Part shown: positions 30,671-44,133 of the stretch, piece after piece
Layout of the letters: the number at the start of each line of letters is the position of its first letter
Position numbering within the stretch: the stretch's first letter is position 1
DNA from: Escherichia phage vB_EcoM_PhAPEC2
DNA length: 64,000 nucleotides
Direction: 5' to 3' (one strand)
Sequence record: NC_024794.1
Notes under the pieces: model-generated
Seen by the model: only the letters and a program-made list of their open reading frames with translations
What the model was told of the DNA's origin: nothing
Database searches by the model: none
Translations under genes and position numbers: made by a program

Positions 30671-31249
30671 TTAATTACCACGGGCCGCATTAGCAACGGC
30701 GTAAGCATACTGAACATTAGCGTCCTTAAACGTACCTTTAGAGGTATCTATTTCTGCCTTAAAGCCGCCTTTAGCCATAACATCGGCAAATTCTTTACGG
30801 AAAGCCATTGCATCAAGACCTTTCCATGATGATTTATGCTTGGCAAATTCAAGACCGGCGTAGTTGACAGCTTTAGCCAATTTATTATCAATGACCCATT
30901 TACCGGCTTTAGGCACAAACTTCGGGCCTTTTTGTTTAGAGAACAGTTTTAAATTCCAGCGACGAAGATCACTATCGGCTTTAACAAAAGCTGCGTCTAA
31001 GTTACTAGCAACAACATCTTCAATATGAGCAAATTTAAGTCCGTCAACTTCAATATTTAGATCGTTACGCCAACGTAGTCCTTCCCAAGCGAAGGCTTTA
31101 AAATCAGAAGCTTTTGTGGCTAGATATCGTTCAAGTGGAGCAGTTTTAGGGTCAAAGCCGTTTCCGCCACGATAATTCCACTCGTCCTTATTAATGCCTT
31201 GAGCTTTTCCTGCAAAGGCCTCGGCGATAAATTCTTTATACGTTTTCAT
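30671..31249 (-). CDS. ipIII: Internal head protein, IPIII-like
   Basis: 192 aa; N-terminal capsid-targeting sequence MKTYKEFIAE; basic, Ala/Lys-rich. Confidence 0.7.
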   Translation of the reverse strand: MKTYKEFIAEAFAGKAQGINKDEWNYRGGNGFDPKTAPLERYLATKASDFKAFAWEGLRWRNDLNIEVDGLKFAHIEDVVASNLDAAFVKADSDLRRWNLKLFSKQKGPKFVPKAGKWVIDNKLAKAVNYAGLEFAKHKSSWKGLDAMAFRKEFADVMAKGGFKAEIDTSKGTFKDANVQYAYAVANAARGN

Positions 31250-31279
31250 TTTTGTTTCCTTGTTTGTTTTGATAGAGTA

Positions 31280-31309
31280 ATTATACCATATTAATACTTA
31301 AGCGTAAAC
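31280..31309 (-). promoter_or_regulatory. Early promoter TTTACG-N17-TATAAT upstream of ipIII
   Basis: Minus GTTTACGCTTAAGTATTAATATGGTATAAT. Confidence 0.45.
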
Positions 31310-31312
31310 AAT

Positions 31313-31429
31313 TTAAGCTTTATCGCCAGAAATAATTCCGAAGTTGTTAAAATCGTATCCAATATCGTCAACATCTACTTTAGGACCTTTGGCATCTGCT
31401 TCAATGATAAATTCTTGATACATTTTCAT
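31313..31429 (-). CDS. Candidate mini internal peptide (38 aa) with capsid-targeting-like N-terminus
   Basis: Hand-translated MKMYQEFIIEADAKGPKVDVDDIGYDFNNFGIISGDKA; strong SD AAGGAAAAA; below ORF-track cutoff. Confidence 0.4.
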   Translation of the reverse strand: MKMYQEFIIEADAKGPKVDVDDIGYDFNNFGIISGDKA

Positions 31430-31435
31430 TTTTCC

Positions 31436-31849
31436 TTAGTAAATTGATTTACCATAGTATTTGTACCAAGTCGGACGTTGAGCAATTTTTTCATCTAAGC
31501 GTGCTTGACTTATCGCAATGGACGCTTCGGACGGGACATAATTATTACGAAATTCGGCAGGGATGTCGGAAATATCCTGGACTGTCGTGTCCTTGATTTT
31601 GAAACCACGTTTCAAACATTCAGCGATTAGCTCGATTTGTCGTAAACGTAAAAATTCGAGTTTGTCGTAAAAGAATGTTACGTGACCTGTGCCTAAGATA
31701 AATGTTGGAGAGATTTTAAAATCCTTTACACGTTTACCATTTTGAACATGTTTACGGACTGCACCGAATACACGAGGTAATTCGCGATACTCAGCCATAA
31801 GATGTTGGTCGGCCAGTTCAGAAACAAGTGTTAAATTGATACGAGTCAT
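31436..31849 (-). CDS. denV: Endonuclease V (pyrimidine-dimer DNA glycosylase)
   Basis: 137 aa from ATG 31849; [35 protein letters not shown]... matches T4 DenV as recalled. Confidence 0.92.
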
Positions 31850-31864
31850 AATTTCCTCCAAGTA

Positions 31865-31906
31865 GTTGATGAATGTATAGTATCAAAACTCTTGGAGGAA
31901 GTAAAC
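31865..31906 (-). promoter_or_regulatory. PeSL-like early promoter cassette upstream of denV
   Basis: Minus GTTTACTTCCTCCAAGAGTTTTGATACTATACATTCATCAACTACTTGGAGGA; dyad CTCCAAG/CTTGGAG covers the SD. Confidence 0.45.
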
Positions 31907-31907
31907 A

Positions 31908-32189
31908 CTATTTTTCTGAAGCGCCTGAAATATATTTTTCAAGACGTTGTTTCATTAGCGAGCCGTTCTTAGCGATTTCTTCTGGCTTATCGCACATACG
32001 CAACAAGGCTTCAAGCTTAACGATATCGCTGGTACGTTCAAATTTGCGAGTATCTATCTTACTAGCAAGTTCAGAAATACGTGCTAATAGACTTTCAGCT
32101 TCAACCAAAGCTGCACCTAGCTTAGTCGCAAATGTGTCAGTAGCTTCGCTAAGAATAGATTCTGATAAAAATTCACTATATGTTTTCAT
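31908..32189 (-). CDS. ipII: Internal head protein, IPII-like
   Basis: 93 aa from ATG 32189; capsid-targeting-like N-terminus [10 protein letters not shown]; ATGA-coupled to e. Confidence 0.7.
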
Positions 32190-32674
32190 ATATACGCTTT
32201 CCAAGTTCCTGTTTTAAATGTTGAGATTACGCGTTTCGCGCGATTAGGTGTCTGACGATACCATTTAGATTTGGCTAGATTTACTGCCGCTTCGTCCCAA
32301 CGTTTCTGTTGAAGCATACGAAGAGAATTAGTAAAACCAGCGACGCCTGCTACACCCATTTGGAAGACCATATTGATCAATGCACATCGACGAACCGCAT
32401 CTAAAGAATCATATACCGGTTTAAGTTTAGCATTACCTAAGATTCCGCGAACGGCTTTATCAACGTCTTCATTAAATAGCTTTTCAGCCTCATCAAGGGT
32501 AATTGTACCGTTGCATTTACGACCGATCATTCTGTCAAGTTCAGCTTTAGCTACGGCTAAAGACGGGTTCTTTGTTACTAAATGGCCTATGCCAATCGTC
32601 CAAAAGCCTTCAGTGTCTTTGTATAAAGTCAGTCTAAGACCTTCGTCGTTACGAAGCATTTCAAATATATTCAT
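32186..32674 (-). CDS. e: Lysozyme (endolysin) e
   Basis: 162 aa from ATG 32674; [32 protein letters not shown]... with catalytic E11/D20/T26 context. Confidence 0.93.
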
Positions 32675-32678
32675 AATA

Positions 32679-32707
32679 CCTCCCACGTTTATAGGAGGTA
32701 TTTATTA
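32679..32707 (-). promoter_or_regulatory. Gene e SD-sequestering hairpin (CCUCC/GGAGG) with late-promoter-like AATAAATA upstream
   Basis: Minus TAATAAATACCTCCTATAAACGTGGGAGGTATTATG; matches the known T4 gene e early-hairpin/late-promoter arrangement. Confidence 0.45.
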
Positions 32708-32708
32708 C

Positions 32709-33167
32709 TTATAGGAGGGTAGTGAGCACCTTATATAATGATTTGCCCATTACATATTCCCATTGAGAAGGTTTAATTAAAGCGAATGCATCAAATTCAG
32801 GAATCTGACGTCCATCTGGGAATGTATGATAGGAATTACAAATACTGTTTCTGAATTGCTCGTGCTCTACAGGGATGGTATATAGGAACAGATGAATATT
32901 CTTATTGTCTGAGTAATGATGTTCGCCTAGGTCTTTCAGGAAGGCAGGGTCATATTGTGTAAACCCAGTTTCTTCTTCGCATTCACGAATAGCGGCTTCG
33001 ATAGGAGATTCGCCAGGTTCGACACGGCCTTTAGGAATATCCCACCGATGAGCTAATGCACCTTTAGGACGAGAACCAGTTACACGGCCCATGAATAACT
33101 CTTTATCTTTTGTCATGAAGATAATACCGGCTGATAGTTCTTTCACTTTATTTTTCTTACTCATCAT
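32709..33167 (-). CDS. nudE: Nudix hydrolase NudE
   Basis: 152 aa; Nudix box GRVEPGESPIEAAIRECEEETG. Confidence 0.85.
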   Translation of the reverse strand: MMSKKNKVKELSAGIIFMTKDKELFMGRVTGSRPKGALAHRWDIPKGRVEPGESPIEAAIRECEEETGFTQYDPAFLKDLGEHHYSDNKNIHLFLYTIPVEHEQFRNSICNSYHTFPDGRQIPEFDAFALIKPSQWEYVMGKSLYKVLTTLL

Positions 33168-33393
33168 CTCGGTCCCATGATTTGGCCATTAATTCGGACA
33201 TAAATTCTTCAATGCGCGTTTCTTTAGACGGACTTTCACTATTAGAGACCGCAAGTTTGTAATCTGCAATAGGACGGAACAAATCAAGGTCCATATTAAG
33301 ATCGTCTTTGATTTTTTCTTCTGACACATCTTTATCGTATGTGTACAGATAACTATCACATGATTCTGATTTAATGTAAATTGCTATACTCAT
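33157..33393 (-). CDS. Hypothetical acidic protein
   Basis: 78 aa from ATG 33393 (MSIAIYIKS...), ATGA-coupled. Confidence 0.4.
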   Translation of the reverse strand: MSIAIYIKSESCDSYLYTYDKDVSEEKIKDDLNMDLDLFRPIADYKLAVSNSESPSKETRIEEFMSELMAKSWDRDDE

Positions 33394-33881
33394 CTCAAAT
33401 TCCTGCATTCGGTAATAAAACGTTCAACTTCATTATTCTTGGCTTTTATCTTGTCTTTATGTTCTTGTAAACTACTTTTAATAAGATTAATAATGATGGC
33501 AGCGGTACCACCGCCAATGATGCCACCAACAACACTTATGATACTAGATGCTAATAAGATAGCAATAATATCAACAAAACCGAAAGAACTCACCTTAGTA
33601 CTAAAAAACCACACTGACGGTACAAATATAATCCATCCTGTTATCCATTGGCACTTATTGAAAAACTTTTCAAGCTCAGCTTGAGTTGTTCGTATTACTT
33701 CATCGATAGGTTGATATCCGTTAATGTATCTGTTCACAATAATACCTGCTGGCTGGTCGATTTTAAATTCTTGGCAAATATGTTTCACTAAGTAGGATGG
33801 ACATCCTGTCCAATCTACTGAATAGTATGAAATACCTTCATTGCCATCGTCTATATTAGACCAATATGTTTTGTTAATCAT
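33390..33881 (-). CDS. Membrane protein, FIKECR-tail family member
   Basis: 163 aa; hydrophobic core, Gly-rich segment, C-terminal ...ERFITECRNLR. Confidence 0.5.
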   Translation of the reverse strand: MINKTYWSNIDDGNEGISYYSVDWTGCPSYLVKHICQEFKIDQPAGIIVNRYINGYQPIDEVIRTTQAELEKFFNKCQWITGWIIFVPSVWFFSTKVSSFGFVDIIAILLASSIISVVGGIIGGGTAAIIINLIKSSLQEHKDKIKAKNNEVERFITECRNLR

Positions 33882-34567
33882 TACCAGCCTTCCATAGGGA
33901 ATTCCAGATAAACTTGAGCATTGACACGAATTTCATTGGTAATCTTTTTAACTCGATCTGTATTACGAGATACACGTCCGAACCAACGCCATCCGTTACT
34001 AATTGCACGAGAACCAGTGTGCCATGTTTGCCAATCAAACTGAAGAAGAGTACGGTCTGGAGCTTCCCATTTCTCTAGTTCGCCTTTTTCGATTTTTTCG
34101 AGGACTTCTTTGTGCCACTGACGATAGATAAGTTCGCCATCAGGAATCTGACTGAACTCTGCAGTTCCTGTTGCAAAATGAGTAGGACACACACCAGCGT
34201 TAACAAGACCAAGAATATGTTCAGAATGGTAACGAGGGTTGTCATAGTCAGGTTGTCCTGCAGTAATAAAGTGTTGACCAACTGGAATATCAGGGCGTGG
34301 TACGTCATCATGGTGATAGCCTGGGATTGCAGGATACCAACCAGGCATCAGCATGTGGACTCGTGAATCAAATACAACCTGGTCGGTGTTCCAATCATCA
34401 GGCAAGTTCATAATGAAAGAGCGAGTAATAGGACCGCCGTTATTATAAGCAAATTCTAAACTACAGTTGAAGAACATAGGCTCGTTCTTGATTTTATCAT
34501 TAGAAATGCTACCGGCAAAACCACCTACTGCACGAGCTTGACTATTAAACACTTTAGAACTATTCAT
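33881..34567 (-). CDS. Hypothetical protein (228 aa), His/Asp-rich putative enzyme
   Basis: ORF with SD GAGGAAA; segments YHHDDVP and HSEH. Confidence 0.55.
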   Translation of the reverse strand: MNSSKVFNSQARAVGGFAGSISNDKIKNEPMFFNCSLEFAYNNGGPITRSFIMNLPDDWNTDQVVFDSRVHMLMPGWYPAIPGYHHDDVPRPDIPVGQHFITAGQPDYDNPRYHSEHILGLVNAGVCPTHFATGTAEFSQIPDGELIYRQWHKEVLEKIEKGELEKWEAPDRTLLQFDWQTWHTGSRAISNGWRWFGRVSRNTDRVKKITNEIRVNAQVYLEFPMEGW

Positions 34568-34568
34568 A

Positions 34569-34874
34569 TTATTTTCCTCGACATTCTTTAATGAAATTTT
34601 CTAGATTGGTAGATTCAATAGCTTTTTTACGAGCTTCTGCGTGTTCTTCTTCAGACAATTTACGTTTATAATTGACCCAGACATTATGGTCTAAACCAGT
34701 TGTGGCATATAATATCAAAGCTCCGACGAATAATAAAAACGGTGATAAAAATATACAACCAGGAACACCATCCATACTGTAAGCCTTTTGTAATACGGCA
34801 ACAGAAAGAGCTGCGTAAAAAAGCGATGCAAATATTGTAAAAAGACCGATTCGGTTGGTTTCGCCTAATTTCAT
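34569..34874 (-). CDS. Membrane protein, FIKECR-tail family member
   Basis: 101 aa; two hydrophobic segments; C-terminal ...LENFIKECRGK. Confidence 0.55.
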   Translation of the reverse strand: MKLGETNRIGLFTIFASLFYAALSVAVLQKAYSMDGVPGCIFLSPFLLFVGALILYATTGLDHNVWVNYKRKLSEEEHAEARKKAIESTNLENFIKECRGK

Positions 34875-34893
34875 AATATTCTCCTCATGTTTT

Positions 34894-34932
34894 AATAGGA
34901 CTACTATAACATAGTCCTATAATTGTGTAAAC
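34894..34932 (-). promoter_or_regulatory. PeSL-like early promoter cassette (TTTACA-N17-TATAGT with 8-bp dyad ATAGGACT/AGTCCTAT)
   Basis: Minus GTTTACACAATTATAGGACTATGTTATAGTAGTCCTATTAAAAC. Confidence 0.5.
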
Positions 34933-34944
34933 AGTTTTGTGAAG

Positions 34945-35901
34945 TTATTTGAAAGGTTTTACCATATGGAAATTTTGTTTGAAACGTTTTACGTAATCGT
35001 CGTGTCCTAAGCTTTGGTACATACTTACAACTTTGCTGTAGTTTTCCCAGGCGTATTCACGGAACCAACCGGAGGTGATGCTTGTGCAGACTTTTTCTAA
35101 TGCCATCATGAAACTGGCTTCAGGGTTAATTTTAAAGTCATTAGGAATCTGAGAACGTTCTAACGCTAGTACACATGATTCTTCGTATACACCGGCCAAT
35201 TTGACCATTTCTGGTAACGATTCGAACTTCTCGCGTGAGGTCATGACTTCAGAACCGTCTTTCATGTAAAACGTATAAGCCGGACGGTCTGTTAGTGCAA
35301 TGGCTTCATGAATAGTATCATGGTCATATGTATAGATGTCATCTTTAAAGAACGCACTTTTAGAAGTGTCAAGAACTGGGTGAGCATAGTTCAAAGTTTC
35401 TTTCTGGCGTTTCAGCATAATTTCAGTAAGTTCATCGTTCAGTGTAACACCTTTACCACGAAGATACTGGATATGGTTCATAGTCTTTAAAAAGAATGGA
35501 TTATTTTTCTTGAAACGATGAGACATTTTAATTGCAAGACATATCTCAGGAGTTGCCCAGTAAAACCCGGTCAAACGATCTTTAGTCAAATTTTTCTTGG
35601 CGTATTTTAAAAGGTCATAAGAAGACGTGAAATCTTCAGGAGTGAGTTCGCCGATTAATTCACGGACATTAGTGATTGCCGGAACAATATACGCTTCAAA
35701 ATGAGTTTCGCGTCCGTTATGGAAGCATTTGAAAACTTGGACATCAGGGTTATCTTGGTGAACATATACACCCATCATTTGATTTTTGAATGCATTCCAA
35801 GAACATTGGTCTGCAATAAAGTCCCAGTCACTATTTTTGATAGCGTTAGAATCAATAAGACCATGATAGTGAAGTGCACGAGAACCAATAACTAACATCA
35901 T
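34945..35901 (-). CDS. Hypothetical protein (318 aa)
   Basis: Long ORF; no motif recognised by eye. Confidence 0.55.
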   Translation of the reverse strand: MMLVIGSRALHYHGLIDSNAIKNSDWDFIADQCSWNAFKNQMMGVYVHQDNPDVQVFKCFHNGRETHFEAYIVPAITNVRELIGELTPEDFTSSYDLLKYAKKNLTKDRLTGFYWATPEICLAIKMSHRFKKNNPFFLKTMNHIQYLRGKGVTLNDELTEIMLKRQKETLNYAHPVLDTSKSAFFKDDIYTYDHDTIHEAIALTDRPAYTFYMKDGSEVMTSREKFESLPEMVKLAGVYEESCVLALERSQIPNDFKINPEASFMMALEKVCTSITSGWFREYAWENYSKVVSMYQSLGHDDYVKRFKQNFHMVKPFK

Positions 35902-35929
35902 AATATTTTCCTCGGATTAATTCATTAAC

Positions 35930-36169
35930 TTAAATTTCACGACATGCGATATTATATTCATCCCAGAGGTCATCATGTGAAGCCTCTACCAATGGAACGA
36001 TTGTACCGTTTATGTCTTCATTATAAGGGCAAATTGTACAGTGCGCGTCTTCGAATCGGATGCCTTTGTGTTCAGATTTTTTATAACGCATATCGAATAT
36101 CTTTGCAAACTTTTCACGAGTAATGGTTTTAGCAACCACTTTGGTTCCAATACTTTCGTAATAAATCAT
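35930..36169 (-). CDS. Hypothetical small Cys-containing protein
   Basis: 79-aa ORF, ATG verified at 36169. Confidence 0.5.
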   Translation of the reverse strand: MIYYESIGTKVVAKTITREKFAKIFDMRYKKSEHKGIRFEDAHCTICPYNEDINGTIVPLVEASHDDLWDEYNIACREI

Positions 36170-36188
36170 TGTGGACTCCGTTTAATTT

Positions 36189-36227
36189 GATAGGACTACT
36201 ATAACATAGCCCTATCTTGTTGTAAAC
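36189..36227 (-). promoter_or_regulatory. PeSL-like early promoter cassette (TTTACA-N17-TATAGT)
   Basis: Minus GTTTACAACAAGATAGGGCTATGTTATAGTAGTCCTATCAAATTAAAC. Confidence 0.5.
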
Positions 36228-36231
36228 TGTT

Positions 36232-36429
36232 TTAGCAAGAATAACTAGATGATACCCAGCCTTGAACAGTGATACTATTGTGGGATAATGAGATCGCGTC
36301 CTGGAGATTCAGACCTGCGTTATCTTCAATCCATAATGTAACTTCTTCGCGTTCTTCTGTTGCAATTTGGAACAGGTTTTCCAGGGCAGCTACTGCCGTA
36401 CGTACAGCACAATCTAATTCACGAGACAT
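36232..36429 (-). CDS. Small protein, WVSSSxxC-tail family member
   Basis: 65 aa ending ...QGWVSSSYSC. Confidence 0.5.
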   Translation of the reverse strand: MSRELDCAVRTAVAALENLFQIATEEREEVTLWIEDNAGLNLQDAISLSHNSITVQGWVSSSYSC

Positions 36430-36438
36430 ATGATTTCC

Positions 36439-36711
36439 TTAACAAGTGTGAGAAGATGCAACCCAACCACCAGTTTCGAGGCTCAGGTTGTAGTCGTATT
36501 GGTAAACGTCGGCCCATTCAGCATAGCCGTTTTTTGTACAACGTTCAAGATCGGCTTTAAGATGTCCTGGTGAATGATAGGTTCCACCCATACCATAAGC
36601 TGGGTACAAGTCGAATGTTGTGTTTTGTTTATCAGCAATTTCTTTGGCAGCCTCAATAGCTGCATAGATTTTTGCTACGGCTTCAGCCAGTTCGGTTTGT
36701 TCTTTAGACAT
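36439..36711 (-). CDS. Small protein, WVSSSxxC-tail family member
   Basis: 90 aa ending ...GGWVASSHTC; shares GGTYHSPG-like motif with next paralog. Confidence 0.5.
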   Translation of the reverse strand: MSKEQTELAEAVAKIYAAIEAAKEIADKQNTTFDLYPAYGMGGTYHSPGHLKADLERCTKNGYAEWADVYQYDYNLSLETGGWVASSHTC

Positions 36712-36720
36712 AATGATTCC

Positions 36721-37026
36721 TTAGCACAACGCAGAAGACGAAACCCAAGCACCTTCAGTAATAACGTAACCATTACCTTCACGCTTAACATCGCCACCAT
36801 TATTTTCAATTTCATCTTTCATCCACTGGGATACGATTTCACCCTTAGGATAATAAGTACGACCGCTACCATAATCACCTACAGAAAATGATACGGCATA
36901 TTGGTCTGCGATCTTTGTTGCTTCTTCTTCGATACGTTCAGCTTGATTCAGAAGTTTATAAATTGCATCTGAAGCGGATTTGGCATCATTAAACTCTGGT
37001 ACTTTAATTTCAATAATCTTACTCAT
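36721..37026 (-). CDS. Small protein, WVSSSxxC-tail family member
   Basis: 101 aa ending ...GAWVSSSALC. Confidence 0.5.
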   Translation of the reverse strand: MSKIIEIKVPEFNDAKSASDAIYKLLNQAERIEEEATKIADQYAVSFSVGDYGSGRTYYPKGEIVSQWMKDEIENNGGDVKREGNGYVITEGAWVSSSALC

Positions 37027-37382
37027 TTTCTACATTCCTTAATAAAGTTTTCAATTGTTTCATTTTCACGTCTAGCTAGGAGTTCATTATAACTAATCAT
37101 TTGAGAAGCGTAAACCTTTTTATTTTTCTTGTTATGGTTTATAAAATCGTAGTAAAAATAGACTACAGTACAAAATGATGCGATGGATGCAAAGGCTTGG
37201 GTGTATCTTAGGTCCTGCCATTGGTCTGTGAATCCACCGGTATTCCCTATAAATCCTAACACAACTCCGTCAATAAGAAATCCAACTAATCCAAAGGCAA
37301 ATCCCATGCCAATACTCATAATAAAAATTAGAATGTTCTCACCAAGAGACGGCCATACGGTTAAGAGTTGAGGCTTTTGCAT
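37023..37382 (-). CDS. Membrane protein, FIKECR-tail family member
   Basis: 119 aa; two TM-like segments; C-terminal ...ENFIKECRK. Confidence 0.5.
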   Translation of the reverse strand: MQKPQLLTVWPSLGENILIFIMSIGMGFAFGLVGFLIDGVVLGFIGNTGGFTDQWQDLRYTQAFASIASFCTVVYFYYDFINHNKKNKKVYASQMISYNELLARRENETIENFIKECRK

Positions 37383-37756
37383 CTTATTTCCTTAACGAAT
37401 TCCATAGCTTCTTCATATTCATATTTTTTAACAGCTTCATCATACTGAGCTTGGGCTTTTGCGCACTGAACTTTCCACTCGCGAACTCGAGCTCTGTGAT
37501 GACGGCCTTGGTGCCAATATCCTGCCCAATTAATAGGCATTAATAAAAACGGTACAATAAGTGGTGCGACGAACATTAATGAAAACGCTGCATCAGACGA
37601 TATAACTTTATTGGAATCTAAAATAGCTCCTATAATCATAAAGATTAAAAATGCTAAAGCTAAAATAGGGCCAAATAGTACTTCGTTTGGGATTAATTTA
37701 CGTTTGTATTCGTATGCCCATGGCTTAATTGGCATGTACAGGGTTGGCTTTGACAT
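37361..37756 (-). CDS. Membrane protein, FIKECR-tail family (divergent; start uncertain)
   Basis: ORF with hydrophobic segments; C-terminal ...EFVKEIRCKSLNS; alternative ATGs at 37786/37756/37735. Confidence 0.45.
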   Translation of the reverse strand: MSKPTLYMPIKPWAYEYKRKLIPNEVLFGPILALAFLIFMIIGAILDSNKVISSDAAFSLMFVAPLIVPFLLMPINWAGYWHQGRHHRARVREWKVQCAKAQAQYDEAVKKYEYEEAMEFVKEIRCKSLNS

Positions 37757-38327
37757 ATTCTCTACATTCCATAATAAATTGCTCAAGGATTAAATTGTTA
37801 GTGAAATTAGGACTAACAACCATAGTTTCATAAAGCGCATCAATAGCACTTAAAGCATCAACTCTTTTAAGCAAAGGCTTGCCTTCATACATAGTTTCAG
37901 AATCGACGATTAACGTAAAGTAATATTTTTTATTATCGACTAGAACTTCTGTGTCGATATAAAACATATTAGACCTCAGAAGCTTATCTCTAAAACCATA
38001 ATAATCTTCTGAACGTTCGCTGATATATTCCAATTCAGTGTTTAAACAACAAACAGACCACGTAGGAGCAACGAAATCAGTGAATCTAATATCATGGTCT
38101 GCAACTAGTTTAGCAATAGCTCCGATATCATGAATCATAATACCTGGGGCTAATAAAGATTTTCTGCTATGGCTAGCAGTTTTCTCAGTGGTCTCATAAG
38201 AAGCTGACCAGTACCATTTACGTCCGGTTGCAACATATCGTAATGAATCAACTAAAGACGTAGGTGGATTTACCTTATCTCGGAACTCTTCGAACATTGA
38301 GTCAATATCATTATTTTGGTTTCGCAT
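37725..38327 (-). CDS. Hypothetical protein (200 aa) with FIMECR-containing C-terminus
   Basis: ATG 38327 with SD AAAGGAG directly after the terminator at 38346-38368. Confidence 0.5.
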   Translation of the reverse strand: MRNQNNDIDSMFEEFRDKVNPPTSLVDSLRYVATGRKWYWSASYETTEKTASHSRKSLLAPGIMIHDIGAIAKLVADHDIRFTDFVAPTWSVCCLNTELEYISERSEDYYGFRDKLLRSNMFYIDTEVLVDNKKYYFTLIVDSETMYEGKPLLKRVDALSAIDALYETMVVSPNFTNNLILEQFIMECREYVKANPVHAN

Positions 38328-38345
38328 GTTAACTCCTTTATTATC

Positions 38346-38368
38346 CAAAAGGAGGACCGGAGTCCTCC
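38346..38368 (-). terminator. Rho-independent terminator (GGAGGAC-N4-GTCCTCC + U-run)
   Basis: Minus GGAGGACUCCGGUCCUCC followed by UUUUGG. Confidence 0.55.
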
Positions 38369-38376
38369 GCATTATT

Positions 38377-38970
38377 TTATTTCAAAGAGTTAATATATTC
38401 TTGTACATCAGCAGAAGTGGTTTCGACACCGGCTGGAGTGCCATTGAACGTTTCAACACGAGTCAGAGTGTCTTCGATATCAACCTTAGTCAGTGCAGCG
38501 ATTTCAATTACATCATCGGCTGTAGAGATACCAAGGGCATTGGCTGCTCGAGTTTCACGAATGTATTCGAGTTTAATTGCCAGGTTCTGACGAGCATCGT
38601 CAAGTTCAACCACCTTACGAGCAATTTCAATTCGCATAGCGGCATACCCGTCGGCTTTTGTATTAAGTTGTTCGGCAGTTCGACGATACAGAAGACCAAG
38701 TTTAGCATGCATAGTAACATCTTGTCCTTCAGCCAGGAGCTTGCGAATTTCACGTTCCTTAGAAGCGGCTTGCTTGTTCTTTTCATTAACAAGTTCGCGA
38801 ATACGTTTTTCTTCATTAATAGATTTAACAGAAGCCGTTTTTAGTTCTTTGATTTGGGTAATCAACTTATCTGCAGCTGCGTTATACTGTTCTTCGACAG
38901 TCAGATTTTTAGCCATAGCAGTACCCAGTTTAGTGCGGATGAATTCAACAAGTTTCTTCAGTGTGTTCAT
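38377..38970 (-). CDS. Hypothetical coiled-coil protein (197 aa)
   Basis: ATG 38970 ([10 protein letters not shown]...); heptad-like charged helical sequence; flanked by strong early promoter and terminator. Confidence 0.55.
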
Positions 38971-39011
38971 ATTATTACCTTTCAATTGGTGGTTTATTAT
39001 CCAATGAGAGC

Positions 39012-39040
39012 ATTATACTCTGCTCTCAAGAGTTTGTAAA
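39012..39040 (-). promoter_or_regulatory. T4-type early promoter TTTACA-N17-TATAAT (exact duplicate of the one at 9879-9907)
   Basis: Minus TTTACAAACTCTTGAGAGCAGAGTATAAT within a 48-bp block identical to 9863-9910. Confidence 0.6.
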
Positions 39041-39268
39041 TTATTTTTTAATCAAATTGACATAAAACTTGGCGTCTTCCGGGTGCATGCCTTCACAGTA
39101 TTCTTCAACCATGAACTTCTTAACAGCTTCATAAGGACCACTCAGATTAAGCTCAGTTGTCCAGAACTTGGAATCTTGGGCTGAATCGATACGAACTTCA
39201 GGGTGACGGTTGCGAATAACTTCTTCGGTATATTCATAATCAACGACATCAATACTAACTTTAGCCAT
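39041..39268 (-). CDS. Hypothetical protein (75 aa)
   Basis: ORF, start MAKVSID at 39268. Confidence 0.5.
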   Translation of the reverse strand: MAKVSIDVVDYEYTEEVIRNRHPEVRIDSAQDSKFWTTELNLSGPYEAVKKFMVEEYCEGMHPEDAKFYVNLIKK

Positions 39269-39283
39269 TTTGTTTCTCCTCTG

Positions 39284-39326
39284 TAGTTGATAAGTCTATA
39301 GTATCACCATCCTTGGTGCTTGTACA
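39284..39326 (-). promoter_or_regulatory. PeSL-like early promoter cassette (TGTACA-N17-TACTAT)
   Basis: Minus TGTACAAGCACCAAGGATGGTGATACTATAGACTTATCAACTAC. Confidence 0.4.
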
Positions 39327-39334
39327 TCATTATT

Positions 39335-39667
39335 TTATTTTTTCCAACTTAACAACTTGTAGTGTCCTTCATTCGTACGAGGTTTATCCCAAGAAACACT
39401 AATATATGATTCGCTGTCAATAGAAGTCGCCGGGTTTTTCTCTACCGTAAGACCTTCACTTTCCAACCATTCAATAGTATTTGCACATAAATCAGAAGAA
39501 CACCTAATCGGGAACCGGCAAGATTTTTCACCTTTAGCTGCAGTGTTATACATCTTTTCTAAAATACGCTTTTGCACGTTTTTAAAAATAGTTTCAGCAG
39601 ATTCTTCAGATTTTTTATTCAGTTCAGTATAAAGACTCATAACATTCTTCTCATTAATAGGGCTCAT
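39335..39667 (-). CDS. Hypothetical protein (110 aa)
   Basis: ORF; start may be internal (MSLYTELNKK...). Confidence 0.5.
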   Translation of the reverse strand: MSPINEKNVMSLYTELNKKSEESAETIFKNVQKRILEKMYNTAAKGEKSCRFPIRCSSDLCANTIEWLESEGLTVEKNPATSIDSESYISVSWDKPRTNEGHYKLLSWKK

Positions 39668-39697
39668 AATATCTTAATCATGAGCCCATGTACACAT

Positions 39698-39961
39698 TTA
39701 TTTCATATTATTGAAATAATCTTCCGCATCAAAATCGTTATCATGGTAAACTTTGGTAGACGATTTGGCGTAGCCTTCGGCCGAGAACATATTAATCACA
39801 ACTTTAATTGTATACCACTGTCCGTCTTCATTACCCATTACTGCGTAAGTTTCAAACATCGGATGGTCAGGTCCAATAACTTTAATATCATTCACCGTAC
39901 GTCCGAAATCTTCTGGAACACATTTCATAAAGAAGTTGAACAGTTCACCGTAATTATCCAT
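39698..39961 (-). CDS. Hypothetical acidic protein (87 aa)
   Basis: ATG 39961 with SD GGAG (MDNYGELFNFF...). Confidence 0.5.
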   Translation of the reverse strand: MDNYGELFNFFMKCVPEDFGRTVNDIKVIGPDHPMFETYAVMGNEDGQWYTIKVVINMFSAEGYAKSSTKVYHDNDFDAEDYFNNMK

Positions 39962-39989
39962 TTCATTCTCCAAGTTTTTTCTGTATCGG

Positions 39990-40033
39990 TAGTTGATAGT
40001 TGTATAGTACCACGGAAGAACAGGGATGTAAAC
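39990..40033 (-). promoter_or_regulatory. PeSL-like early promoter cassette (TTTACA-N17-TACTAT)
   Basis: Minus GTTTACATCCCTGTTCTTCCGTGGTACTATACAACTATCAACTAC. Confidence 0.45.
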
Positions 40034-40101
40034 AGTTTTGTGAAAAAATTTTTAAAAAGTTCTGGGGAATTCTAGGGCAGGGAGAGGAAAGGCCTAGATA
40101 C

Positions 40102-40130
40102 CAAAAAGCCCTATCATTTAGATAGGGCTT
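40102..40130 (-). terminator. Rho-independent terminator (9-bp stem AGCCCUAUC + U-run) after IP-like gene
   Basis: Minus AGCCCUAUC-UAAAU-GAUAGGGCU followed by UUUUUGG. Confidence 0.55.
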
Positions 40131-40135
40131 TAAAA

Positions 40136-40699
40136 TTATTTACCTAGTTTAGTTATTATAGCTTCGGCAGCAGCTTTTAGCTTAGATGCAGTGTTAATAC
40201 GATTTTTAATTTCAGTATACGCATCGCCAAGAACATCAAGGCTATCAGAATAAACACTTACACTATTGCGTTCGCTATTTGAAATAGAACCTTTAGTTTT
40301 ACGATCAAAATCAGTGTACACGTCTTGAAGATCACGGGCTGCCTTCTTTGCATCATCCAATGCGTCAAGAGCTTTATTCAAAGCATTGACATATTTTTTA
40401 GTGTCAAACATATTCTTAGAAATTTTAACAGGTGCACGTTCAGGAGTAGCTAAGGCGGATTTAGGAACCTGCGTGCCAGATGCCAGTTTCTTAGAAATTT
40501 TGAAAAACGCTTTATTGAAACTATTTTCTTGACTCATCGTAAAAGAACTAGTATCGATGTTATACATTTCAATAGCTTTAGCTTTCCACTTAAGAAAATC
40601 GCCACGGTCTTTTGGATCCAAGTGGAAGAATACTTTAGTAAGATCTGCTTCAGATGGTAATTTTGCTGCTTCGGTTAAAAATTCGGCATAGGTTTTCAT
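40136..40699 (-). CDS. Internal-protein-like head protein (additional IP family member)
   Basis: 187 aa; capsid-targeting-like N-terminus MKTYAEFLTE; own late-promoter-like TAATAAATA about 40 nt upstream and own terminator. Confidence 0.6.
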   Translation of the reverse strand: MKTYAEFLTEAAKLPSEADLTKVFFHLDPKDRGDFLKWKAKAIEMYNIDTSSFTMSQENSFNKAFFKISKKLASGTQVPKSALATPERAPVKISKNMFDTKKYVNALNKALDALDDAKKAARDLQDVYTDFDRKTKGSISNSERNSVSVYSDSLDVLGDAYTEIKNRINTASKLKAAAEAIITKLGK

Positions 40700-40788
40700 T
40701 TAAAATCCTTGAAATAATTTATCGGTTTGTTATTAATTATTTATTACTTTGGTATTATCAGTAACAGCATTCTCCGAGTGAGTCAAAC

Positions 40789-40816
40789 TAAAAAGCCCCA
40801 ACCTTTCGGAAGGGGC
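40789..40816 (-). terminator. Rho-independent terminator (GAAA-loop hairpin + U-run)
   Basis: Minus GCCCCUUCCGAAAGGUUGGGGC + UUUUU; repeat of the 25378 and 41342 hairpin. Confidence 0.6.
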
Positions 40817-40822
40817 ATTCTA

Positions 40823-41287
40823 TTATTTAATTTGTTTAGCAGACCAGATACGGTCTTTAATAAGTTTTTGGATATCTTCAACATACTCAAGGCTATGAGC
40901 GTGAGGATTATCTTTGAAGCTATGTGCTCGTGCCAGTTTCTGGCCTTCTGTTTTGATTACTAAAAGCTCTTTAAGAATTGCTTCATACTTAGAAATAATT
41001 CCTTTGGCGATATTTTTTTCTTGAGCGGCTTTAGGGTCCGCTTTTGGCACAGGTGCTTTACCTGTAGCTTTCTGGAACAATTCACCTGATGCAGCTAGGC
41101 TTTTAAAAACTCGGCTAACAGTATTAGCATTAGTAAAACCTTCGGCTTTAAAATCTCTAATAAAACGGAAACGTTCTTCATCAGAGGCGTCTTTGTAAGA
41201 ATATTTACCTGCTTGAATTGCTGCAATCGCAGCGGCTTTTACATCTGAACTAGATTGTTCAGTCAAAAATTCAGCGTATGATTTCAT
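40823..41287 (-). CDS. Internal-protein-like head protein (additional IP family member)
   Basis: 154 aa; capsid-targeting-like N-terminus MKSYAEFLTE; late-promoter-like TAATAAATA at 41307-41315. Confidence 0.6.
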   Translation of the reverse strand: MKSYAEFLTEQSSSDVKAAAIAAIQAGKYSYKDASDEERFRFIRDFKAEGFTNANTVSRVFKSLAASGELFQKATGKAPVPKADPKAAQEKNIAKGIISKYEAILKELLVIKTEGQKLARAHSFKDNPHAHSLEYVEDIQKLIKDRIWSAKQIK

Positions 41288-41332
41288 GTTGCTTTTCCTA
41301 AGTTAATTAACTTATCTATTTATTATTATGCC

Positions 41333-41363
41333 AAAAAAAAAGCCCCAACCTTTCGGAAGGGGC
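41333..41363 (-). terminator. Rho-independent terminator (GAAA-loop hairpin + 9-U run) ending the tRNA/stable-RNA transcription unit
   Basis: Minus GCCCCUUCCGAAAGGUUGGGGC + UUUUUUUUU. Confidence 0.65.
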
Positions 41364-41365
41364 TA

Positions 41366-41660
41366 TGCCTTGCGGCAACCTTGTCGGGGTTCCACCTGCT
41401 AAGGCAAGTGTTTGTACGAAACGCCGGGATTCGAACCCGGTTATTAAGTAGTTGACGCTACTCAATATTTTTAAAAGGCCATATCTCGACCATATCCGAA
41501 CGTTCCGTCAAAAACGCTACTCGGCTTACGGCAAAGATATTTCCTCGAATCGATAATTCGGTGCGCCGTTTCTGCTGTGATGTAAGGGGATATTAACAAA
41601 TCGTAAAGATTTATTAAGACCAGTCCTTACTCAGGGAACATCAGTCCGACGACTTACCGG
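41366..41660 (-). ncRNA. Candidate small stable RNA(s) (position of T4 rnaC/rnaD species 1/2 RNAs)
   Basis: About 300 nt with no credible ORF, between an ORF and a strong terminator at the 3' end of the tRNA operon; contains tRNA T-arm-like CCGGGTTCGAATCCCGG. Confidence 0.3.
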
Positions 41661-41675
41661 TAGCGACCCGGCTTC

Positions 41676-42020
41676 TTATTTTGACATATCATCAATTTGC
41701 TCTCGACGCCGACGCCATAGATTAATCACTTCATTACCACATTCGGCGTTTGGTATATGACGGCAATAATATAATGATTCGCGTTTCTGGAACCGATGTT
41801 GCAATGGGATTTCGTTTAAAAGGTCTTTACGGTCAAAGTATTCAAAACTAGTTAACCCAGAACGATTTTTAATGAACTTCCAATGTCCAAATTCATTTTG
41901 AACATAGATGTAATCGGCATGCTGATACAACGAATTAATCAATCGGTCTGAAATAACTGTATCATGTTCGTTAAAATAAAACGTTAAATCATGAACTACT
42001 AAGTAAACATTACCTTTCAT
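41676..42020 (-). CDS. Hypothetical protein (114 aa) embedded in tRNA operon
   Basis: ORF between tRNA-Arg and the stable-RNA region; basic C-terminus (WRRRREQ). Confidence 0.45.
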   Translation of the reverse strand: MKGNVYLVVHDLTFYFNEHDTVISDRLINSLYQHADYIYVQNEFGHWKFIKNRSGLTSFEYFDRKDLLNEIPLQHRFQKRESLYYCRHIPNAECGNEVINLWRRRREQIDDMSK

Positions 42021-42039
42021 ATTTTCCTCACTTATTAAA

Positions 42040-42115
42040 TGGTCGAGACAGTAGGGATCGAACCTACGACCTAGGACTTAGAAGGTCCTTGCTCTTCCTT
42101 CTGAGCTATGCCTCG
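42040..42115 (-). tRNA. tRNA-Arg (anticodon UCU)
   Basis: Hand-folded 76-nt cloverleaf incl. encoded CCA: acceptor CGAGGCA/TGTCTCG, D-arm GCTC/GAGC, anticodon loop CTTCTAA, T-arm GTAGG-TTCGATC-CCTAC. Confidence 0.85.
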
Positions 42116-42119
42116 TATT

Positions 42120-42194
42120 TGGCGGACGTGCATGGATTCGAACCATGGGCCAATTGATTAACAGTCAACTGCTCTACCACTGAGCTACACATCC
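42120..42194 (-). tRNA. tRNA-Asn (anticodon GUU)
   Basis: 75-nt cloverleaf GGATGTGTAGCTCAGTGGTAGAGC...CTGTTAA...GGTTCGAATCC...CCA; 4-nt spacer to neighbours. Confidence 0.85.
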
Positions 42195-42198
42195 AAAT

Positions 42199-42273
42199 TG
42201 GTGGCCCTGGCTGGTTTCGATCCAGCTACCTATCAGTTATGAGCTGACAGCTCTCCCATTGAGCTACAGGGCC
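42199..42273 (-). tRNA. tRNA with CAU anticodon (elongator Met or lysidine-type Ile2)
   Basis: 75-nt cloverleaf GGCCCTGTAGCTCAATGGGAGAGC...CTCATAA...GCTGG-ATCGAAA-CCAGC...CCA; G1-C72 pair argues against initiator. Confidence 0.8.
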
Positions 42274-42352
42274 TAAATAACTTTCTATTATGAAAGGCAC
42301 TTTAGAGCACCTTTGGTAATAGAGGGTATGAATTAATAATAACACATAATTC

Positions 42353-42868
42353 TTAAAGCAAATCAATCATTTTAACAGTCGGCAAAACGATTTCTTCTTC
42401 AATATAAGCAAATTCGACACGTTCAACTACACGCAAGAAATCATAATCATAATATTCAGAAGCATGGCCAAGAATATCAGTGAGACCTTCTGATACCAAA
42501 TATCCGTTCTCACGGAACAGGTCAAATACACGTGATTCGTCTTCTTCAGATTTATTGCCGAGGTCGACTTCAATATCAAAGACCTTTTTAATGAATTCTG
42601 GATAAAGCTGGTCTGAGAACAGTCCTTCAACCAAGTATTCATAGATTAAAAGCGAGCAATCACTGAATAGTGTATTACCACAGTAACGTTCAGCTTTAGT
42701 GCTGGAATGACGACTCTTAAATTTCTTCAAGAGATATTTAAACTGCTGGAGCTCATGCTCTTCCACACCAAATAATGTTTTGGTTTTATAGTTGTCACCA
42801 TCATTTTCGTAGGTAGTGACATCAATTACGTAGCCCTTAGGAATTGTACTGCCTAAACAAATATTCAT
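42353..42868 (-). CDS. Hypothetical acidic protein (171 aa)
   Basis: ORF, ATG verified at 42868, SD GGTGAG. Confidence 0.5.
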   Translation of the reverse strand: MNICLGSTIPKGYVIDVTTYENDGDNYKTKTLFGVEEHELQQFKYLLKKFKSRHSSTKAERYCGNTLFSDCSLLIYEYLVEGLFSDQLYPEFIKKVFDIEVDLGNKSEEDESRVFDLFRENGYLVSEGLTDILGHASEYYDYDFLRVVERVEFAYIEEEIVLPTVKMIDLL

Positions 42869-42872
42869 TTAC

Positions 42873-43163
42873 TCACCGTACCATATTAATGTAATTATAT
42901 TCAATGCAACGTAATTTCAAAGGATTCTTGAAAATATCATATTCAAGAGGGCCTTTTTCTGTTTCAATAAAGAAATCAAAGTTAACTGTGTTAAATTTAT
43001 CATCTTCACAGAGTAATTTAACTTGCGAAGATGAACGGTCGATATAAACCTTTTCAACCTCAAAGTTAGTCAGAATACCATAGTCATTAACTAGTGCTTT
43101 AGCTGCACGTTGATCGCTTTCATATCCATTCTCGACAGATTTTACTTTAGCATAAAGAATCAT
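42873..43163 (-). CDS. Hypothetical protein (96 aa)
   Basis: ORF, ATGA-coupled. Confidence 0.5.
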   Translation of the reverse strand: MILYAKVKSVENGYESDQRAAKALVNDYGILTNFEVEKVYIDRSSSQVKLLCEDDKFNTVNFDFFIETEKGPLEYDIFKNPLKLRCIEYNYINMVR

Positions 43164-43522
43164 GAGTGTTCCACCACTTCAAAGGTATGAGCATCAACAA
43201 TATGATACCAGTCAAAATTTTCTTCTGCGTTTTTATAAATTTCGCGAAGAGCCTCAACAGTTTTTCCTGTAGCAACAAGGTCGTCAATACCACCAAGAGG
43301 ATAACAGTCATAACCAGCAAACAGAAGGAAATTAATAGTTTCTGTAGGTTCTGGATGCAGAACTCCGTTATCGTCTACCACTTCAAAGAAAGTGTAAGAA
43401 GGAGTACAAGTTTTAATCCAGGCCCATGCTTGAGCCGCTGAATCAAATGGTCTGCGTATCAAACGACAATCAGGGTCTTTAGAAGGATTTGCTTCAAAAT
43501 CCGCATATACATGATATTTCAT
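43160..43522 (-). CDS. Hypothetical protein (120 aa)
   Basis: ATG 43522 with SD AAAGGTGAG (MKYHVYADFEANPSKDP...). Confidence 0.5.
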   Translation of the reverse strand: MKYHVYADFEANPSKDPDCRLIRRPFDSAAQAWAWIKTCTPSYTFFEVVDDNGVLHPEPTETINFLLFAGYDCYPLGGIDDLVATGKTVEALREIYKNAEENFDWYHIVDAHTFEVVEHS

Positions 43523-43523
43523 T

Positions 43524-43709
43524 TTACTCACCTTTTGCAATTTTATCCATAACGATAGCGATTAAGCCGATTAGAAATGCTACTACCAATGAGATAGAGT
43601 TTTCAGTTGTTGTCAGTAGTCCACAAATGAATCCTACAAACATCGAAAAACTAAAAGCCATTGAAGCAATTACTACAGCAACATTACGAATCAGTTCAGC
43701 GCGTTTCAT
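43524..43709 (-). CDS. Hypothetical small membrane protein
   Basis: 61 aa from ATG 43709 (SD TGGAGAAA); two hydrophobic segments. Confidence 0.45.
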   Translation of the reverse strand: MKRAELIRNVAVVIASMAFSFSMFVGFICGLLTTTENSISLVVAFLIGLIAIVMDKIAKGE

Positions 43710-43737
43710 TTTATTTCTCCATTTACTCATTTGTTTT

Positions 43738-43776
43738 GATAGGACTACTATAACATAGTCCTATCGTGTTGTAAAC
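43738..43776 (-). promoter_or_regulatory. PeSL-like early promoter cassette (TTTACA-N17-TATAGT)
   Basis: Minus GTTTACAACACGATAGGACTATGTTATAGTAGTCCTATCAAAAC. Confidence 0.5.
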
Positions 43777-43779
43777 TAC

Positions 43780-44067
43780 TTACAGAAGAGTTTTTGCAAT
43801 AATTTTAAGCTGAGCTACAGAAATATGCTTAGCTTTAAACAGTGCGGTCTCTTCAGCCGGAGAGATAACAATAGTAGCGCCGTCTTTCTTAGCAGACCAT
43901 CCGTCCCCTAAGTAAACAGTACCTTTTACTTCTTCACCGTCAACCAGACTAATCATTGGTTTACCCTCACGTCCTTTATTTGTTTTAATAACTTCAGAAG
44001 TAAGGGATGCTTCGGTCAGAGTAGAAACGTTAGCAACAGGTGATATAAATTCTTTATAGGTTTTCAT
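43780..44067 (-). CDS. ipI: Internal head protein IPI-like
   Basis: 95 aa (same length as T4 IPI); capsid-targeting-like N-terminus MKTYKEFIS...TLTE; SD AAGGAAAT. Confidence 0.7.
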   Translation of the reverse strand: MKTYKEFISPVANVSTLTEASLTSEVIKTNKGREGKPMISLVDGEEVKGTVYLGDGWSAKKDGATIVISPAEETALFKAKHISVAQLKIIAKTLL

Positions 44068-44092: not shown

Positions 44093-44133
44093 GATAGGAT
44101 GATAGTATCACACCATCATCCTTATGTAAACTG
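44093..44133 (-). promoter_or_regulatory. PeSL-like early promoter cassette (TTTACA-N17-TACTAT)
   Basis: Minus GTTTACATAAGGATGATGGTGTGATACTATCATCCTATCAAATAAAC. Confidence 0.45.

Follow-up and report, generated by a model that had tools for sequence, protein, structure and literature searches.

Escherichia phage vB_EcoM_PhAPEC2 is a T4-like coliphage of the RB69 group (Mosigvirus). Our searches and scans cover a 64-kb window of its genome (the whole stretch of 64,000 nucleotides analyzed here, from record NC_024794.1), in which six open reading frames (ORFs) begin with the leader sequence of the T4 internal proteins; all genes discussed lie on the minus strand. Two of the six are clear orthologues of T4 IpIII and IpI, in agreement with a preliminary description of this DNA that had read the ORFs as leader-tagged internal-protein genes. 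Two more, which encode orphan proteins of 187 and 154 aa, occupy a site between e.8 and rnaC. The surrounding 15-kb region matched more than 1,000 records of T-even-type phages, the best of them Mosigvirus with about 96-98% identity. The 38-, 93-, 154- and 187-aa products, compared by exact sequence, each have an identical counterpart in vB_EcoM_PhAPEC2.

Diverse internal proteins with a common leader were described by Repoila et al. 1994 (as cited in PMC3012670 and PMC12373910), and the group has been reviewed as a 'diverse set of defense proteins' in which the leader alone is conserved (PMC3012670, PMC12373910). Leader positions 4 and 7 are critical for targeting, and positions 8 and 10 for cleavage by the prohead protease gp21 (PMC9026906, PMC3012670). 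Work published in 2025 established that Ip1, Ip2 and Ip3 each block another GmrSD-type restriction enzyme, without cross-protection (PMC12373910), and IpIII is active in the cytoplasm without its leader (PMC9391042).

Leader-tagged ORFs in the window

Six-frame translation of the window contains exactly six matches to MK(T/S/M)YxEF(I/L), each at the first codon of an ORF. The relaxed motif M[KR].[YF].[ED]F[ILVM], scanned in six frames over the whole window, was likewise observed six times, against a mean of 0.02 in 200 shuffles of the window, and the leader DNA pattern ATGAAANNNTWYNNNSARTTY gave six matches where 0.03 were expected. The five ORFs and the sixth, 38-aa ORF of the preliminary description are all present at the coordinates it gave, on the minus strand (Table 1). 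A still looser scan of the window produced no seventh member.

Table 1. Leader-tagged ORFs and associated regulatory elements in the window
Feature	Position	Strand	Basis or remark
IpIII orthologue, 192 aa, leader MKTYKEFIAE	30671..31249	-	91.7% identity to T4 IpIII over 192 aa
Early-type promoter TTTACG-17-TATAAT, directly upstream of IpIII orthologue	31280..31308	-	consensus scan, 10/12 matches
38-aa ORF, MKMYQEFIIE..., RB69ORF125c-family deletion remnant (our reading)	31313..31429	-	DNA alignment
93-aa leader-tagged protein, RB69ORF127c family	31908..32189	-	phrog_3499 'internal head protein', E=3.5e-46
Late-promoter variant AATAAATA upstream of e	32699..32706	-	site of the first of T4's two TATAAATA motifs before e
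Hairpin terminator of 187-aa cassette, then TTTTTGGTATCTAGG as after T4 rnaC	40100..40131	-	-17.2 kcal/mol, z -4.5
187-aa orphan, leader MKTYAEFLTE, candidate internal protein	40136..40699	-	leader + LTE at 8-10
Late-promoter variant AATAAATA, 39 nt before 187-aa start	40738..40745	-	kept at the same place in Tequatrovirus SCS4
Terminator hairpin after 154-aa gene	40790..40816	-	exact 27-nt rnaC-terminator copy; -16.1 kcal/mol
154-aa orphan, leader MKSYAEFLTE, candidate internal protein	40823..41287	-	leader + LTE at 8-10
Late-promoter variant AATAAATA, 30 nt before 154-aa start	41317..41324	-	perfect TATAAATA there in the SCS4 orthologous gene
Terminator hairpin of rnaC-like RNA gene, upstream boundary of insert	41337..41363	-	aligned to T4 rnaC
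IpI orthologue, 95 aa	43780..44067	-	Pfam IPI_T4 E=2.6e-49; 86.3% identity to T4 IpI
Early-type promoter TTTACA-17-TACTAT, upstream of IpI orthologue	44102..44130	-	same arrangement at T4 ipI

The targeting residues Y4 and F7 are kept in all six ORFs. The cleavage motif occupies residues 8-10 in five of them (IAE, IIE, LSE, LTE and LTE), while IpI has LTE at residues 17-19. Between pairs of genes, 17-24 of the first 30 nt are identical; the leader is conserved as protein and not as DNA, with synonymous differences among the leader codons. Likeness among the six proteins stops at the leader, so that they do not form a homologous family. The preliminary description had spoken of an expanded family and had proposed a comparison with related phages. 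Six leader ORFs are indeed present, but relatives carry six or seven such genes within the same 15 kb, against three in T4, so that the set is of usual size for the group.

Orthologues of IpIII and IpI

Only the IpIII and IpI ORFs are orthologous to characterized GmrSD inhibitors, Ip3 and Ip1; the 187-, 154- and 93-aa proteins have no homology to either. The IpIII orthologue also matches phrog_5341 ('internal virion protein', E=4e-117), and its mature part has an isoelectric point (pI) of 9.6 and a net charge of +9. In the IpI orthologue, the Pfam IPI_T4 match spans residues 20-95, exactly the 76-residue mature IPI*. Since the match starts at residue 20, cleavage is predicted after L17-T-E19, as in T4. 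An early-type element similar to that upstream of the window's IpIII gene also precedes T4 ipIII and ipII.

The 93- and 38-aa ORFs

The 93-aa ORF, whose start overlaps the stop of the lysozyme gene e as ATGA, had been called ipII-like. That name has to be withdrawn: the alignment with T4 IpII is confined to the 11-residue leader (residues 1-11), and the ORF belongs to a separate internal-protein family, RB69ORF127c, named 'internal head protein' in some records. A true IpII orthologue (93% identity) adjoins vs.8 in the other Mosigviruses Shf125875 and SA79RD, a slot that is taken by IpIII in vB_EcoM_PhAPEC2. The late-promoter variant AATAAATA located before e would also serve the 93-aa gene.

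The 38-aa ORF has the leader and a ribosome-binding site, AAGGA, 5 nt ahead of its ATG, as its earlier listing indicated, but it is not a designed sixth member of the set. What it encodes is a shortened form, consisting of residues 1-17 and 66-86, of an 86-aa protein with the leader (RB69ORF125c, phrog_2667 'internal head protein'), the gene for which is found at the same position in relatives. DNA alignment reduces the difference to one clean, in-frame gap of 144 bp with a TCCTAAA repeat at either end; outside it, the sequence is nearly the same as in the genes of Shf125875 and ChristianSchoenbein. About 200 phage records have the full-length form, and JS09 and 172859UKE1 are among the minority with the short allele. 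At the motif level, no separate promoter was found for the 38-aa ORF.

We read the 38-aa ORF as a decaying allele produced by repeat-mediated deletion. Were it instead a functional injected micro-peptide, with a 28-residue mature product kept by selection, the intact leader, IIE cleavage site and good ribosome-binding site would be as expected, and the short allele does recur in several phages and has a separate PHROG. We nonetheless regard this as highly improbable. The deletion joined two in-frame 7-bp repeats, so the open frame is automatic and no sign of selection. Of the 76 mature residues 48 are gone, and the acidic remainder is unlike known internal proteins. Most small gp21 cleavage products are reported to exit the head (PMC9026906). 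Finally, among the matches listed, only coliphages of the Mosigvirus type carry the short allele, as expected if it arose once. In ChristianSchoenbein, the 86-aa gene is annotated from an upstream ATG overlapping denV, giving 108 aa (L001 2137-2463).

Two orphan proteins with internal-protein leaders

If cut after E10, the 187-aa protein is predicted to have the mature N-terminus AAKLPSEADLTK, starting at Ala11 (AAKLPSEADL...), and the 154-aa protein is predicted to start at Gln11 (QSSSDVK...). Both mature parts are basic and lysine-rich, with a net charge of +8 each and a pI of 9.5 (187 aa, with 25 Lys) and 9.6 (154 aa), and in this they resemble T4 IpII and IpIII. Together with the IpI and IpIII orthologues of the window, their mature parts span pI 9.0-9.6.

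For the 187-aa protein, 163 phage records gave matches, all but one (85.6%) with at least 95% identity; for the 154-aa type there were 510 such records, with 50-100% identity. Among the best 40 of the 163 and the best 40 of the 510 records, the annotation is 'hypothetical protein', a few being unannotated. The cluster members examined are 'hypothetical' too, save for one evident automated mislabel on a member of the 187-aa cluster, and in the literature searched we found no prior naming of either protein. Relative to the copies in Tequatrovirus SCS4, the ratio of nonsynonymous to synonymous divergence (dN/dS) is 0.05 for the 187-aa and 0.08 for the 154-aa gene, and on this ground we take both to be real genes under purifying selection.

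Similarity searches placed the 154-aa protein in phrog_2280, a family listed with function unknown, which the 187-aa protein matches also. Pfam returned sub-threshold helical noise for the extra proteins, NCBIfam had no hits, and a sequence search of the PDB gave nothing. When 1.84 billion representatives were searched exhaustively with HMMER, the 187-aa protein gave six hits: the cluster to which it belongs, three fragments, a 2561-aa protein that matched weakly and a single 204-aa relative with 31% identity. This distant relative starts with a leader-like sequence, MITFNEFLNE.

AlphaFold models of the two proteins have modest or low confidence (predicted local distance difference test scores, pLDDT, of 70 and 63), that of the 187-aa protein being a low-confidence model; the 154-aa model is all-helical. 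In both models a helical N-terminal domain is connected by a Pro/Lys linker to a helical hairpin at the C-terminus. With the 154-aa model as query, Foldseek found nothing better than E 0.24 in the PDB; among viral structures it recovered the protein's own family and, at the borderline (E 0.014), a Serratia phage protein.

Given the shared phrog_2280 and the similar models, the two proteins may be paralogues. Without the leader, however, their pairwise alignment was no better than shuffles (z about 1), and a profile-profile comparison returned a probability of only 38% over 26 residues.

Two records bear on the integrity of these genes elsewhere. In RB69 the 187-aa gene is split into ORF148c and ORF149c (AY303349 73431-73990) by a frameshift or a sequencing error. 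A 94-aa metagenomic protein (P0065) is a chimera: it ends with the C-terminal 28 residues of the 154-aa protein (NPHAHSLEYVEDIQKIIKDRIWSAKQIK), and its N-terminal part resembles, by eye, the trna.3-like ORF at 43160-43540; this suggests that deletion or recombination fused two loci in some phage.

Promoters and terminators of the extra genes

The preliminary description had credited each extra gene with a late-promoter-like sequence and a terminator of its own, and both elements are there. The variant AATAAATA lies within a longer motif, TAATAAATA, upstream of both genes, and downstream of each gene is a hairpin with a trailing U-run (Table 1). Because its count is at chance level, the 8-mer by itself was rejected as promoter evidence. 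It gains weight because it is the commonest natural variant of T4 late promoters, with A for T at -13 in 9 of 50 sites (PMC2988020), because the same variant stands before e, and because its position is conserved in SCS4. There the 187-aa gene retains AATAAATA and the 154-type gene has a perfect TATAAATA, despite diverged surroundings. We infer that the extra genes are transcribed late from AATAAATA. An early or middle promoter for the 187-aa gene was discarded on inspection, as acceptable spacing was absent.

Cassettes at the e.8/rnaC site

The segment at 41364-41600 (minus strand) aligns as a near-identical orthologue of T4 rnaC (species 1 RNA) with its terminator. An Rfam scan at gathering thresholds gave only three tRNAs, so the rnaC-like RNA appears to be without an Rfam family. 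In T4, TTTTTGGTATCTAAGCC and the e.8 promoter come immediately after the rnaC terminator, with no gene between e.8 and rnaC. In the window, TTTTTGGTATCTAAGCC follows the terminator of the 187-aa gene. Because the T4 post-rnaC sequence resumes at this point, the two genes are inserted exactly between the terminator and its tail.

Related phages show the units separately and together. Shf125875 has the 154-aa unit only, with the same type of junction, and SCS4 has both units, with GGGCTTTTTGGTAT bounding each side. The BASEL phage Bas46 ChristianSchoenbein likewise has both, with protein identities of 98.9% (187 aa) and over 90% (154 aa). Presence/absence breakpoints fall at the GGGGC-TTTTT(GGTAT) terminator tails, and two exact 27-nt copies of the terminator (direct repeat family D1, 100% identity, spacing 547 nt) flank the 154-aa gene. 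Between the window and SCS4, synonymous divergence (dS) is 0.14 for the 187-aa gene, compared with 1.63 for the 154-aa gene and 0.69 for the e.8-like gene, which indicates that the 187-aa unit was exchanged between genera far later than its surroundings diverged. Truncated or frameshifted copies exist, for example in RB69 and OE5505, as expected of a dispensable accessory gene.

With a AATAAATA and a terminator for each gene, breakpoints in the terminator tails and the discordantly low divergence of the 187-aa gene, the earlier suggestion of self-contained, insertable cassettes is supported. Recombination at the terminator hairpins would, we propose, let phages acquire, lose and swap these cassettes.

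Proposed function of the leader-tagged proteins

Overall, we consider it reasonably likely that the six leader ORFs constitute an internal-protein gene set and that the 187- and 154-aa ORFs are two more genes for capsid-loaded, gp21-trimmed and injected cargo. On this model the decapeptide MK(T/S)YxEF(I/L)xE would dock the newly made protein on the scaffolding core of the assembling prohead. The prohead protease gp21 would then cut after the Glu of (I/L)xE, at residue 10 in most of the proteins and residue 19 in IpI. The freed mature protein would remain in the head with the DNA and be ejected with the genome into the next host. The 187- and 154-aa genes would form two late units in tandem behind the rnaC terminator, each with a promoter, a ribosome-binding site, the leader-ORF and a terminator. 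That the 187-, 154- and 93-aa proteins are packaged, cleaved and injected and act against restriction is proposed from sequence features. Because Ip1-3 inhibit GmrSD enzymes, inhibition of first-line nucleases would be the most likely role of the new members, and an anti-defense function fits the published Ip1-3 activities.

The leader could in principle mark something other than packaging. The shared 5' end might be a portable expression or recombination module, with the 187- and 154-aa proteins acting late in the cell, unpackaged. Likeness among the six genes is limited to the first 30 nt, the cassettes appear to recombine at flanking regulatory elements, and PeSL cassettes demonstrate that regulatory elements serve as recombination linkers in T4-like phages (PMC2839356). 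This explanation seems quite improbable to us. The leader is conserved as amino acids with synonymous codon differences, the residues kept are exactly those for targeting and cleavage, and the 31%-identical relative of the 187-aa protein retains a leader-like N-terminus. Moreover, foreign proteins are packaged when given just the first ten residues of IpIII (PMC9026906, citing Mullaney and Black 1996; PMC3012670), and the leader alone has brought green fluorescent protein, a nuclease and beta-galactosidase into T4 heads (PMC3012670, PMC9026906). Since the leader alone suffices in T4, a leader protein made late should be packaged whatever its purpose.

A different question is what the extra proteins, once packaged, would do. 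Their main task might be to balance the charge of the DNA as basic counter-ions, or to help packaging and core assembly, and not to inhibit defense systems. The lysine-rich mature parts, with their net charge of +8, are in keeping with such a role, as are the contacts between internal-protein lysines and DNA phosphates in T4 heads (PMC3012670), the slower head assembly and smaller burst of T4 IpIII mutants (PMC9026906) and the lack of an identifiable GmrSD target for ip4-10 (PMC12373910). We consider it unlikely, however, given that the two genes are patchy in very close relatives and that T4 has neither at this locus. Truncated or frameshifted alleles are frequent (RB69 ORF148c/149c, OE5505), the 187-aa cassette was apparently exchanged recently between genera, and all three classical T4 internal proteins proved to be specific inhibitors. 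Patchiness, broken alleles and recent exchange are less easily reconciled with a structural need than with an accessory gene that is useful under certain conditions.

Several observations weigh against our interpretation of the 187- and 154-aa genes as injected anti-defense cargo. When the seven published genes ip4-10 were assayed alongside Ip1-3 against newly synthesized GmrSD variants, no new inhibition was seen (PMC12373910), which makes 'anti-GmrSD' an unsafe default for internal proteins generally. Our searches of Pfam, NCBIfam, the PDB and Foldseek found no fold or sequence likeness to characterized inhibitors, and the literature searched yielded no virion proteomics, N-terminal sequencing or transcript mapping of the 187-, 154- or 93-aa proteins. 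The classical ip genes, in the window and in T4, have early-type and not late promoters directly upstream, so the extra genes are regulated differently from them. The AATAAATA 8-mer occurs at about chance frequency in the AT-rich window, 5-6 times per strand. Finally, the mature parts of the 93-, 86- and 38-aa proteins are not basic (pI 6.3, 6.4 and 4.1, respectively).

Comparison with known systems

The set resembles T4 Ip1-3 in the leader, the (I/L)xE site and the neighborhood, around denV/e and next to 57B, and two of the six ORFs, with 92% and 86% identity, are orthologous. In size range and in basic charge the 187- and 154-aa proteins also match T4 IpII and IpIII. In contrast, the 187-, 154-, 93- and 86/38-aa proteins are similar to Ip1-3 in the leader only. 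Gene order differs as well, being vs.8-denV-ipII-ipIII-e in T4 and vs.8-ipIII-(38 aa)-denV-(93 aa)-e in the window, and the two extra genes stand at a third site, e.8/rnaC, with late-type instead of early-type promoters directly upstream.

Unrelated small ORFs with a common leader of about 11 residues also characterize the polymorphic internal-protein loci of Repoila 1994, as these are portrayed in later papers. Unlike those, the 187- and 154-aa proteins are not named as Ip in any record among the matches listed, whereas the Ip7 of Shf125875, next to ipI, is named. They accordingly appear to fall outside the published Ip1-Ip10+ set. The 1994 abstract by Repoila, Tetart, Bouet and Krisch reportedly describes conserved blocks, including a late promoter, that flank the ORFs, with the ORFs shuffled between phages.

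PeSL cassettes (Arbiol et al. 2010) combine a sigma-70 early promoter with a stem-loop, and their shuffling via flanking elements has been published (PMC2839356). Like these and like phage 'morons', the extra genes are single orphan genes bracketed by stem-loop and promoter elements, with breakpoints inside those elements, and are transcriptionally self-contained. They differ in their late-type promoter motif and in what is repeated, here a duplicate of the rnaC terminator hairpin. No early promoter was found upstream of the extra genes, only AATAAATA, which places them outside the PeSL definition despite the repeated stem-loops. The cassettes would thus work like PeSL units but are not members of that class.

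A protein that is preloaded in the head, injected with the DNA and active before phage gene expression is also known from T4 Alt and P1 DarA/DarB. These, however, have other targeting signals and far larger, partly enzymatic, non-homologous cargo.

The phenomenon itself is already established; the leader-tagged genes of this phage are real and ordinary in kind, with two probable new members. What may be modestly new is a pair of widespread proteins at the e.8/rnaC site that carry every sequence hallmark of an internal protein and are not named as such in the records examined. A bolder proposal, which we advance only tentatively and think doubtful, is that the 187- and 154-aa proteins are unrecognized injected effectors, encoded at a third internal-protein site, against first-line defenses without a known phage inhibitor, that the 187-aa cassette is sweeping through Mosigvirus and Tequatrovirus, and that the tag is a general preloading device.

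Being active ahead of all phage gene expression, injected internal proteins decide whether T-even phages survive type IV restriction in wild E. coli. Further candidates can be recognized cheaply and reliably by the leader, and flagging the two 'hypothetical' proteins supplies candidates for orphan defense systems and for host-range prediction of therapeutic T4-like phages. The anatomy of the cassettes, in turn, illustrates in a concrete case how genes of this kind pass from phage to phage.

Leader sequences beyond the window

A scan of IMG/VR for the leader DNA pattern gave at least 120 loci (L006-L125). Nearly all of the matches listed are true ORF starts, and their unfixed positions are strongly non-random, with T/S at position 3 and A/S after the cleavage Glu. 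The leader MK(T/S)YxEF(I/L)xE(A/S) heads very varied, unrelated ORFs, for instance in L033 (12080-12109, minus strand), L007 (3988-4017, plus strand), L086 and L035. Domains detected in the cargo include the SAM-lyase family PF23780, a 2'-5' RNA ligase/2H phosphoesterase with a weak Acb1 hit, DUF6267, CHAP and a fusion of SNF2 with a DNA methylase. This suggests that the leader may preload enzymatic cargo into capsids of uncultivated viruses; some of the matches may be chance N-termini in AT-rich genomes. L007 also encodes a single-stranded DNA-binding protein resembling, by eye, T4 gp32.

Other local features

The tRNA cluster at 42040-42273 (minus strand) holds three genes (Arg-TCT, Asn-GTT and one with a CAT anticodon) versus eight in T4, and a 114-aa ORF (41676-42020) lies between this cluster and the rnaC-like gene.

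Five ORFs of the e.2-e.6 region (minus strand; 33390-33881, 34569-34874, 37023-37382, 37361-37786 and 37725-38372), several of them with hydrophobic stretches, share a C-terminal F(I/V)xECR-type sequence (ERFITECRNLR, NFIKECRGK, NFIKECRK, EFVKEIRCK and EQFIMECREYV). This shared end could reflect paralogy or a conserved gene-junction element. Three tandem ORFs of 65, 90 and 101 aa (36232-36429, 36439-36711 and 36721-37026, minus strand) share a C-terminal GWV(S/A)SSxxC and look like a small local paralogue family in the RB69ORF136c-139c region.

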